Assembly: GCA_029262335.1 (NCBI GenBank)
Contig: JAJCZQ010000026.1
Span: 24,443-88,442 of the forward strand
Source of the DNA: Deltaproteobacteria bacterium
GTDB taxonomy: Bacteria; Desulfobacterota_D; UBA1144; Nemesobacterales; JAJCZQ01
Direction: 5' to 3'
Length of the DNA stretch: 64,000 bases
Made by a program: the position numbers and the translations under genes. Each line of letters begins with the position of its first letter. Positions within the stretch are counted from its first letter, which is position 1. The notes beneath the pieces were generated by a model. That model was not told the origin of the DNA, did no database searches, and was given only the letters and a program-made list of their open reading frames with translations. Positions 2,352 through 4,699 of this stretch are shown here, piece after piece.

Positions 2352-2573
2352 AACTTAATAAAAATGTATCATAATCATTTATTAATAGTAATTTTAAGAT
2401 CAAAATTCTATTTAACAAAAATATTTTTTATTTAGATAAAAATAATTTATCTGAAAAAAGATAATGCTTATTATAGTTTATTTTTCATTATAAATGTATC
2501 TTCTAGATTAAATCAACTTAAATACATTGCAAAGGGGATATTACTTATGTAGAATTTCCTATTACAAATTACC

Positions 2574-3545
2574 TTGGAGTTACCTTACATAATGGATAAT
2601 GAAAACCCAATTTTAAAGTTAAAAAATGAGATGGACAAACATGTGGTTGGGCACGACCAGGTAAAGATGGCCCTGCTGCTTGGAATTATATCTAGGGAAC
2701 ATATATATATTGAAGGCCCCCCAGGTACAGCAAAAACAATGCTGTCCGAGATTATATCTTCTGCTGCCCAGTTAAATTTCTTTTTCTACCAGCTTCACAG
2801 GGACACAAGACTGTCCGAACTCATTGGTGACCTTGTAATATCTAAAGAAAAAAGCGATGAAGGCGAAATAATAAAGCAGAAAATTGTTAAAGGTGGTATT
2901 TTAAAATCCGAGATTTGCCTTTTGGATGACATATCCAGGGCACCCGGAGAGTCCCTGAATGTACTTCTTCGTATTCTAAATGAAAGAAAGTTTTTTAATG
3001 AACCAATCCCGCTTATGACAGCAATTGCCACGAGCAACCCTACCGCAGATGAGTATTACAATGAACCTCTTGACCCTGCAAACCTCGACAGGTTTGTACT
3101 TCAGATAAAATCTCTTGGGATTTCATACGGCAAGGGCTGGGACGATGCAAGAAAAGTAATTGAGCTTTATTCCAACAAATCATTTAACGAAGATATTCCG
3201 GTTTCTGTCAGCAAAGAAATTCTGGACGAGTCTTATAATAAATTAGACAAGATGGAAATACCTTCTGAAGTACAGGAAGGGCTTGCCAACTTTGTTACGA
3301 TCTTAGTAGAAGATTACGGATTAAATGAAACAAATTCATTAATATCCGACAGAACTTTCTTTGTAAAATCCCTTAAGATAATTCGTGCTCATGCACTTAT
3401 ATCCGGAAGAGATACCTGCACAATGGAAGACCTCCAGGCATTAAAATACATGACTGCATTCAGGATCCCTGAAGACATTTATGACCAGCTGGACAATATT
3501 CTGCAAAACCTGGATCGTAAAAAAAAAATCCAAATGACGAGCTAA
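2574..3545 (+). CDS. MoxR/RavA-like AAA+ ATPase
   Basis: Walker A GPPGTAKT, Walker B-like LLDD, ATSN sensor and DPANLDRF arginine-finger region. Confidence 0.9.
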   Translation: MELPYIMDNENPILKLKNEMDKHVVGHDQVKMALLLGIISREHIYIEGPPGTAKTMLSEIISSAAQLNFFFYQLHRDTRLSELIGDLVISKEKSDEGEIIKQKIVKGGILKSEICLLDDISRAPGESLNVLLRILNERKFFNEPIPLMTAIATSNPTADEYYNEPLDPANLDRFVLQIKSLGISYGKGWDDARKVIELYSNKSFNEDIPVSVSKEILDESYNKLDKMEIPSEVQEGLANFVTILVEDYGLNETNSLISDRTFFVKSLKIIRAHALISGRDTCTMEDLQALKYMTAFRIPEDIYDQLDNILQNLDRKKKIQMTS

Positions 3546-3565
3546 GAGACGAGGCTGAACAGCCT

Positions 3566-4699
3566 ATGTCCGAGTTTGACCAGGATTTTCCCGACGACCA
3601 GGAACTCAAAGAAAAACCTGACGATGAATCAGAGAAACAATCGGAAGAAGAAGTGTCCGATGCCAGGAAAACTTTTTTCCAGGCCCTGAAAGAATTAAAG
3701 GAAAACATCGACCAGGAAAGTGAAATGAATCCCCCCGATGATTTAAACATTCCTTCAGACCCAACAGGTCAGCCTTTTGATGACGGCAACTCCGAAGAGA
3801 AGGATTCACAAACCGATAAAATATTTGCCAGCAAATCTGAGAACTCAGGCGAAGACGATGATCTTCTGACACCCGGGAAAAGAAACCTCGACACTGCAGA
3901 CAATATCAAGATGATAATGAAAGTCCTTGACGGGAACTTCCAGAGAAACATTGCCAGAAAAGCATTCCATCCGGGCGGCGTTCCGAGGACCTGGAAAAGA
4001 ATGACAACATTTGATGAAGTTGAAGATGTAGACCCAATGGACGCATTTGTATGGGCAGACAACATGTCGCCGCAGCTCCCAAGGGTCCACAGAAGGGAAA
4101 AAGAAAGGCTTGGCGGTGAAATTGCAATACTTAGAGACGTTAGTACATCTATGATGGGTGTTTACAGTGAATGGTCATCCTCGGTGGTAAAAGGGGTACT
4201 TGAGCTTGCCCGATCAAAGAGCATGAGAGTAGGTTATGTAGAGTTTAATCATAAGTCATTTAAGTATAAAAAGAACTCAAGATTTTTTACACGTGATTAC
4301 GAATGGGTGCTAAACCTTTCCACCAACACAGAATGTTCAGGCAATACAAACTATGAAGACGCCCTTAGCGAGTCTCTTTCCGAATTCAGGGGCAGGGGCT
4401 TAAGGAACAAGCACATACTTTTCATTACTGATGGAATCCCAACTTCAGGGGACTGTGATGTTTTTCGCGAAAGGGTCCTTGCCAAAAAACTTGGTGTTTG
4501 CATTCACTCAATCTTTATCGGTTCTAAAAACTATCCCAAAATTCTGCAGCAGGTTTCCCAGGAAACAATCGGCACGCAGTTTGTTGCATTCAAGGGAAAA
4601 GACGGCCTTATTAAGATTGAAAGGAAAGATAAGTTTTTTACCGGCAGGGATGAAGTCAAAACCCAGGTTGACCCGTTTGATAAAGTTTTCTCAAACTAG
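3566..4699 (+). CDS. VWA-domain protein with acidic N-terminal linker (frame is open from 3521; probable frameshift partner of the AAA+ gene)
   Basis: MIDAS DVSTS, GNT and ITDG motifs. Acidic low-complexity N-terminus. Confidence 0.85.
   Translation: MSEFDQDFPDDQELKEKPDDESEKQSEEEVSDARKTFFQALKELKENIDQESEMNPPDDLNIPSDPTGQPFDDGNSEEKDSQTDKIFASKSENSGEDDDLLTPGKRNLDTADNIKMIMKVLDGNFQRNIARKAFHPGGVPRTWKRMTTFDEVEDVDPMDAFVWADNMSPQLPRVHRREKERLGGEIAILRDVSTSMMGVYSEWSSSVVKGVLELARSKSMRVGYVEFNHKSFKYKKNSRFFTRDYEWVLNLSTNTECSGNTNYEDALSESLSEFRGRGLRNKHILFITDGIPTSGDCDVFRERVLAKKLGVCIHSIFIGSKNYPKILQQVSQETIGTQFVAFKGKDGLIKIERKDKFFTGRDEVKTQVDPFDKVFSN

Follow-up and report, generated by a model that had tools for sequence, protein, structure and literature searches.

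Is a pair of adjacent frames that meet at a run of identical bases two genes, or one gene whose halves are joined by slippage? We met this question in a stretch of Deltaproteobacteria bacterium DNA (contig JAJCZQ010000026.1; 64,000 nucleotides (nt), hereafter the window), in which a frame for a MoxR-class AAA+ ATPase is followed on the same strand by a frame for a von Willebrand factor A (VWA) domain, the second lying at -1 relative to the first and the two overlapping at a run of ten adenines (A10). The initial annotation proposed that a -1 ribosomal shift, or the transcriptional insertion of one additional A, would give two proteins from this locus, and the sequence comparisons support it on three counts: the run is conserved, natural fusions of the two halves exist, and most orthologues lack a start codon at the place where the VWA frame would need one. 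We consider it very probable that the locus is a single ancestral AAA+-linker-VWA gene and that the A10 run, which falls where the two domains meet, serves as a conserved site of recoding. The features of the locus are as follows.

2592..3545, + strand: zero-frame open reading frame (ORF) for a MoxR-class AAA+ ATPase of 317 amino acids (aa), ending ..DRKKKIQMTS*; start inferred from homologues
2715..2738, + strand: Walker A motif GPPGTAKT, read from the sequence
3518..3520, + strand: TAA closing the -1 (VWA) frame, its two A's being the first two of the run
3519..3528, + strand: A10 run, the proposed slip site, A_AAA_AAA in the zero frame, its KKK closing the AAA lid domain
3521..3542, + strand: 22-nt interval in which both frames are open, the sole place for a frame change that joins them
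3521..4699, + strand: -1 frame with acidic linker and VWA domain, 392 open codons, ending in TAG 4697-4699
3538..3578, + strand: predicted RNA hairpin, 10 nt 3' of the run, not conserved
3543..3545, + strand: TAA stop that would end the short product; it coincides with a conserved Leu codon in the VWA frame
3566..3568, + strand: ATG that gene callers would pick as the VWA start, with GAGG 11 nt upstream
4118..4576, + strand: VWA domain (Pfam VWA_3, residues 200-352 of P0002)
4136..4150, + strand: metal-ion-dependent adhesion site (MIDAS) motif D-V-S-T-S (DxSxS), read from the sequence

The ATPase frame reads CGT (3516) AAA AAA AAA ATC CAA ATG ACG AGC TAA (3543-3545), and the VWA frame opens at 3521 with KKNPNDELRDEAEQPM.. 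and meets no stop until the TAG at 4697-4699. The arrangement in which a T followed by the run closes the VWA frame recurs in many orthologues. Every coordinate given beforehand for this junction, namely the A10 run at 3519-3528, the -1 phase of the VWA frame, the TAA at 3518-3520 and the crossover interval 3521-3542, matches the sequence. The ORF list places the ATPase start at TTG 2574 (323 aa); because homologues begin M-x-x-x-N-P-F, the ATG at 2592, which gives MDNENP.., is the likely start. Of the two products first envisaged, a 323-aa ATPase and a fusion of roughly 700 aa, the second therefore keeps its size (~702 aa for the ATPase joined to the -1 frame, with natural in-frame fusions spanning 689-776 aa) and the first is shortened to 317 aa. 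The junction of the joined product would read ..DRKKKNPNDELR.. by either route of slippage, and two peptides, NPNDELR and DEAEQPMSEFDQDFPDDQELK, which the VWA frame encodes ahead of Met(3566) or spanning it, would arise from recoding alone.

We checked the length of the run on four assembled Logan contigs from four runs and four studies. A coral metagenome contig (depth 18) covers 3200-3684 with 0 differences, a marine metagenome contig covers 3261-3900 with 10 substitutions and 0 gaps, and a biofilm contig covers 3200-3545 with no indel. The fourth contig, 151 nt long and taken from a sediment RNA library made with oligo-dT (X19, depth 2.5), covers 3504-3654 with three substitutions, A10 and no indel. 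The absence of indels in all four sets aside an assembly error as the source of the run; the initial annotation had reckoned with an A11 or A8 as the mark of such an error, and the independent assemblies give A10. Rare run-length variants are invisible in these data because they consist of assembled contigs. The X19 contig indicates that a close relative was present in that RNA library and does not by itself prove transcription.

An A9 tract is not unusual in a window as AT-rich as this one (7 matches, with 12.8 expected from shuffles), and the 2.09-Mb genome holds five A/T runs that reach 10 and none that is longer. Sense-strand A runs of at least 8 number 422 genome-wide; three fall at the junction of two long same-strand frames, and among these only the run studied here reaches 9 or more. 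It is the place and the conservation of the run, not its bare presence, that set it apart. The other two junction runs, both A8 (contigs C3:13848 and C17:97344), lie outside the window and may be ordinary overlapping genes.

The relatives compared here are recorded as Candidatus Dadabacteria or Thermodesulfobacteriota and all are metagenome-assembled genomes (MAGs). Of 120 genomes searched for the phylum, 117 contain the gene (expectation value E <=1e-20), and the three without a match are 97, 90 and 83% complete. We gathered 119 loci, 118 of them with both halves (L097, which has no ATPase half, was excluded), and the removal of 25 duplicate loci, from genomes that had entered the set twice, left 93 distinct junctions, one of which (L062) has masked letters just after the run. 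A run of A9-A12 is present at all 93 of these orthologous junctions, at locus G+C contents (GC) of 0.29 to 0.62, which bears out the conserved A-run anticipated at the frame junction. It is kept across protein divergence down to about 50% identity and is the sole invariant block in an alignment of 36 diverse junctions. Elsewhere in both ORFs lysine is encoded by AAA in 2713 of 4978 codons (54.5%; 40% in the 30 loci with GC of at least 0.5), and 146 of 382 KK pairs are all-AAA; three consecutive AAA codons would be expected from Lys usage in 19.3 of the 93 loci and are observed in 93. These counts indicate that the run is conserved at the nucleotide level, beyond what the protein requires. In one family with A11 (L006-L012 and L043-L056), the nine bases 3' of the run (GACAGGGAC) are almost invariant in DNA and are followed by a G-rich stretch; either a dual-coding constraint or a local signal might account for this. 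One orthologue (G060:C6:831-1971) matches only with internal stops (TGA, TAA and TAG), and may be a decayed copy or the product of poor assembly.

The ATPase ORF scores above the Pfam cut-offs for bpMoxR (77.1 bits, cut-off 27), AAA_5 (70.7, 22) and AAA_3 (45.2, 27), and also for AAA_lid_8, and the VWA ORF does so for VWA_3, VWA_2 and VWA. By sequence, the nearest solved relatives of the ATPase are 2r44 (3.4e-21) and RavA (2e-16), and a fold search also puts these two first. The model of a whole fusion returned matches to the ATPase module only, so the fold search left the VWA half unplaced; by sequence that half has no solved relative at E <=0.01. Profile matches and predicted fold together place the ATPase half in the MoxR class. 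The likeness to RavA/ViaA suggested at the outset holds at this level and does not extend to membership of RavA, since the NF010054 equivalog model gives 72 bits against 681 and matches only positions 11-283 of 498. A chelatase D/I subunit or CobT was likewise rejected: TIGR02442 gives 15 bits against 779, and the match to Pfam Mg_chelatase covers only 40 residues. ChlI, BchI and BchD chains are absent from all 42 matches of one search and from the best 60 of 64 matches of another, and CobN/ChlH (PF02514) has no match in the bacterium's own genome (92.6% complete).

Residues G42, P44, G45 and K48 of the ATPase are invariant in 20 aligned natural fusions, as are the MIDAS residues D519, S521, S523, T589 and D617 (20 of 20). 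As modelled by AlphaFold, the natural fusion of L014 (705 aa; mean predicted local distance difference test score (pLDDT) 74) comprises a confident ATPase module (1-305), a disordered acidic linker with one helix (310-440) and a confident VWA fold (459-681). Because the KKK encoded by the run forms residues 310-312, the first of the disordered linker, the slip site is predicted to fall exactly at the domain boundary. The usual acidic pair of a Walker B motif is D-E. Here it is D-D (D112 and D113; LLDDISRAPGE, window positions 2900-2935) in at least 90% of the 20 aligned fusions, and ATP hydrolysis may be slow as a result.

From these patterns we infer the slip itself, its two products, their ratio and their co-assembly in the following form. 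Standard decoding would stop at TAA 3543 and give the 317-aa MoxR-class ATPase, and a fraction of expression events would shift to -1 within the run and give a protein of ~702 aa in which ATPase, acidic linker and VWA (MIDAS) domain follow one another. The shift could arise if RNA polymerase added one untemplated A to give an A11 mRNA, or if the ribosome slipped back one base on A_AAA_AAA, and the ratio of short to long product would be set by the length of the run and by the frame. MoxR ATPases form rings and, to judge from other MoxR/VWA systems, a single hexameric ring could contain both short and long subunits and would then carry few tethered VWA arms. Between the two routes we lean slightly towards polymerase slippage, because the run is the only conserved cis-element and because published runs suffice without stimulators.

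Classical programmed -1 ribosomal frameshifting (PRF) of the dnaX type, helped by a hairpin or a Shine-Dalgarno (SD)-like element, could instead be the sole or main route, a possibility that we take seriously while judging it the less likely one. The heptamer A_AAA_AAA stands in the correct phase, and the frameshifting of chlD is described as ribosomal (PMC9227772). The window also offers a predicted hairpin 10 nt 3' of the run (-24 kcal/mol for a 100-nt stretch, z -2.96), and one genus has a weak 6-bp hairpin 26 nt 3' of the run. Yet RNAalifold found 0 conserved pairs in the 36 diverse loci, 0 in the family of the window (6 sequences) and 0 in the A11 family, which is why we leave the window hairpin out of the mechanism, and the hairpin of the single genus shows no compensatory change. 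No SD-like sequence lies upstream of the run in the window; a -1 slip could not rescue the three loci in which the VWA frame lies at +1 (L037, L112 and L128, the last from the second clade described below); and A_AAA_AAA is reported to be less shift-prone than A_AAA_AAG in E. coli (PMC5009743). Given that neither a conserved structure nor an SD-like stimulator was found, we do not assign the locus to the class of stimulated -1 PRF that dnaX typifies. It does have four properties of the poly-A recoding class: a run within the frame overlap, conservation of that run, in-frame fusions, and no conserved VWA start.

The frame in which the VWA half is read differs among the 93 junctions, and three states were distinguished.

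VWA frame at -1: 76 junctions (A9 in 4, A10 in 46, A11 in 26)
VWA in frame, as open frames of 691-800 aa: 15 junctions (A9 in 8, A10 in 4, A11 in 2, A12 in 1)
VWA frame at +1: 2 junctions (A9 in each)

In-frame fused orthologues, the existence of which had been put forward as a check on the proposal, thus occur at 15 of the 93 junctions, and they recur in distant relatives; within the phylum, 17 genomes have an open frame of at least 690 aa. A maximum-likelihood tree of the 93 rows, built with the junction excluded, requires at least seven changes of frame state, six of them forced by well-supported branches, and the run is retained through all of them; the length of the run changes at least 11 times. 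A single A can separate close relatives, as in L059 (A11, -1) and L060 (A12, in frame) or L032 (A10, -1) and L101 (A11, in frame). A single out-of-frame state nevertheless persists throughout large clades (27 species with A10 at -1 and 16 species with A11 at -1), with both halves free of stops. A stop in the frame of the ATPase tail lies 7-25 nt 3' of the run in 92 of the 93 junctions, in-frame ones included (the exception, L029, has it at 75 nt), and where the VWA half is in frame, the remaining alternative frame likewise reaches a stop within 1-44 nt. If a fused gene of this kind slipped, the outcome would accordingly be a product limited to the ATPase and of about equal length. Repeated switches between -1, 0 and +1 with the run retained amount to a natural experiment on how much frame matters when the rate of slippage is high.

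The same switches might be ascribed to phase variation at the DNA level, in which replication slippage would toggle the locus between split and fused and only cells with the in-frame version would make the VWA part. Near-identical contigs do differ by one or two A's (L059/L060, L128/L121 and L129/L125), the tree requires its seven or more changes of state, and poly-A/T tracts are named as possible sites of phase variation (PMC3711429). We nevertheless hold this to be improbable: whole clades, the 27 species with A10 and the 16 with A11, hold one out-of-frame state, the contigs of all four runs have A10, and the VWA frame is intact in 76 of 76 -1 loci, which is unexpected if it is silent in most cells.

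A shade less probable again is that these are two ordinary genes, the VWA protein starting from its own ATG (3566) and the run merely encoding a KKK tail. In its favour are the GAGG that precedes this ATG, the presence of an ATG near this place in 25 of the 76 -1 loci, and the organization of NorQ/NorD and RavA/ViaA, whose partners are described as separate genes. However, beyond these 25 no -1 locus has an ATG in the stretch from the run to an S-E-F-D motif some 15 residues on; the ATG lies 12 codons after the run in 23 of these 25 and 13 codons after it in two (the window and its genus mate L002), an SD-like sequence stands before it in one of the 25, and in the close relatives L016, L017 and L067 the Met is replaced by Thr or Ile. 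In 45 of the 76 loci, the 100 codons that follow the run either contain no ATG or have the first one at least 30 codons along. The peptide encoded in the VWA frame is conserved all the way from the run to the S-E-F-D motif, including the part upstream of Met(3566); 15 orthologues and most distant relatives are in-frame fusions; and the exclusive use of AAA at the junction would be left unexplained. By these comparisons a conserved start of its own is absent from the VWA frame, and the window itself has a candidate ATG. Orthologues without the run and with an independent VWA start at the equivalent of ATG 3566 had been named as an outcome that would refute the proposal; the orthologues have the run, and most lack a start codon there. 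Pipelines annotate two genes here; in at least 76 species-level genomes the second probably has no start of its own, and the locus would really encode an ATPase alone and the same ATPase fused to a VWA domain.

Sequencing or assembly error, or a recent pseudogene, is extremely improbable: homopolymers are error-prone and all records are MAGs, but A10 is found without indels in contigs of four independent runs, the same state is seen in short-read MAGs (MEGAHIT- or SPAdes-style contig names) and in the single-chromosome assemblies of one genus, and neither half has further stops across the 93 junctions.

Several observations weigh against a conserved recoding site, the explanation that we prefer. 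The sole RNA-library contig across the site has A10, and contigs hide minor variants. The figure of 93 out of 93 overstates the number of independent tests because related genomes are not independent. The 15 in-frame and two +1 junctions mean that the -1 state is not obligatory, and the two +1 junctions either are errors or require another kind of slip (-1 A or +2 A). In the window, ATG 3566 with GAGG 11 nt upstream could start a VWA protein independently. Finally, none of the published slippage rates was measured in Dadabacteria; the organisms used were E. coli, Citrobacter and Yersinia.

The joined architecture and the run both extend beyond the phylum. Searching 1.84 billion representatives with the VWA half gave 244 relatives at E <=1e-3; among the 150 of these that were listed, about 55 are at least 550 aa long with the VWA match C-terminal. 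These distant relatives are single proteins of 560-1000 aa. Ten distant relatives were inspected (574-727 aa), and the ATPase half lies in front in all 10. One of the distant relatives (P0006), which shares 48% identity across the matched part of the VWA half and has KKK at its junction, led to 11 metagenome loci (GC 0.54-0.57). These define a second clade (metagenome contigs L120-L129, GC 0.55-0.57) with A9-A12 at the same junction in 10 of the 10 loci that cover it, eight being in frame, one at +1 (L128, A12) and one at -1 (L129, A12). L128 and L129 sit beside near-identical in-frame relatives. The KKK is absent from the junction in the more distant fusions P0008, P0009 and P0011. One of the ten, a fused homologue of 727 aa (P0025), is recorded from a eukaryote, the thraustochytrid Hondaea fermentalgiana, with the source name 'ATPase ravA'; either the family extends beyond bacteria, or this is a contaminant, or it is a transfer.

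The mechanism proposed here is already known from chlD, tssM and dnaX, and the MoxR-VWA family is new to it as far as we found. The closest parallel is the frameshifted chlD gene (fs-chlD), examined in a survey of 1106 complete genomes that yielded 146 candidate clusters (Antonov et al. 2013; PMC3711429) and treated again by Kuznetsov et al. 2022 (PMC9227772). In fs-chlD, too, what is annotated as two genes is an AAA+ frame linked to the frame behind it by a -1 shift on poly-A, in-frame fusions exist in other species, and one gene gives a short and a long subunit. Efficiency rises with the length of the run, E. coli reporters of 'magnesium chelatase' genes with 11, 9 and 7 A giving 63, 40 and 10% frameshifting (PMC3711429). 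The ATPases differ, in that fs-chlD belongs to a different AAA+ clade and the present one is MoxR-class.

In tssM1 of Citrobacter rodentium an 11-A run before a premature stop, with no SD sequence or hairpin nearby, gives truncated and full-length variants through RNA-polymerase slippage at about 20%, with mRNAs of 10-15 A, and the in-frame tssM3 of Yersinia pseudotuberculosis makes its short form likewise (Gueguen et al. 2014; PMC4256274). As in our junctions, the downstream part is out of frame in one species and in frame in another; unlike the present gene, tssM encodes a secretion-system membrane protein of unrelated sequence, and the comparison spans two species there and a whole phylum here. 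The tau and gamma products of dnaX share an N-terminal ATPase module, differ in a C-terminal extension, derive from one gene and enter one complex, and both frame arrangements occur in nature, with stops close by in the alternative frames: E. coli uses -1 PRF on A_AAA_AAG, and Thermus thermophilus uses slippage on A9 (PMC3711429, PMC5009743). Thermus dnaX and Yersinia tssM3 have the same arrangement as our in-frame loci, in which a slip would lead to the short form. DnaX belongs to the clamp-loader family, however, and for the SD and hairpin stimulators of E. coli dnaX no counterpart was found here.

NorQ/NorD, RavA/ViaA and CbbQ/CbbO resemble the present system at the level of the proteins, each pairing a MoxR-class hexameric ATPase with a VWA/MIDAS partner, and in NorQ/NorD the VWA domain inserts a finger into the pore of a single NorQ hexamer (PMC13036017). 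The VWA partner in those pairs is encoded separately and has its own start, whereas at this locus it makes up the C-terminal half of one ancestral polypeptide with the ATPase and would be reached by recoding. A search of the literature, extending to the main texts of PMC3711429 and PMC5009743, returned no report of recoding in the MoxR-VWA family among the papers listed. 'MoxR' and 'von Willebrand' have 0 mentions in the available main texts of PMC3711429 and PMC5009743 (the latter over its first 300,000 characters), and no literature on Dadabacteria and frameshifting was found. The locus would add a second, unrelated AAA+/VWA family beside chlD, which points to poly-A recoding as a device used repeatedly for dosing the adaptor-bearing subunit of AAA+ rings. 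Since the gene is near-universal in the uncultured Dadabacteria, it also offers a testable entry to a core function of these organisms.

We offer one extension of this explanation tentatively, as something we would not ourselves bet on: that the run acts as a rheostat for the composition of the ring. Slippage of about 1 in 5 on A10-A11 would place roughly one VWA-bearing subunit in each hexamer, a dose that would match the one-adaptor-per-ring geometry of NorQD. Lineages might then, and this part we hold just as loosely, retune the ratio of short to long by a single A, flipping between 'long by slippage' and 'short by slippage' with neither product lost. If true, this would be the first MoxR system with an adaptor covalently tethered to the ring and with its dose set by the infidelity of the polymerase, kept across a whole phylum and a sister clade.

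The surroundings of the locus contribute little to this picture. A promoter-like TTGCAA-17-TAGAAT lies 5' of the ATPase start (2527..2555, + strand; consensus scan, 9/12 matches; weak), and there is no terminator-like site on the + strand between the ATPase and VWA frames. The genes around it encode an opposite-strand zinc-ribbon membrane protein, YceG/MltG and ProB, and these neighbours give no functional hint. In five genomes of one genus (G009, G015, G019, G023 and G031; L035-L039) the match to the VWA half is split into residues 1-313 and about 316-390; the two parts lie roughly 130 nt apart within one open frame of 440-447 aa, which points to an insertion inside the VWA domain.

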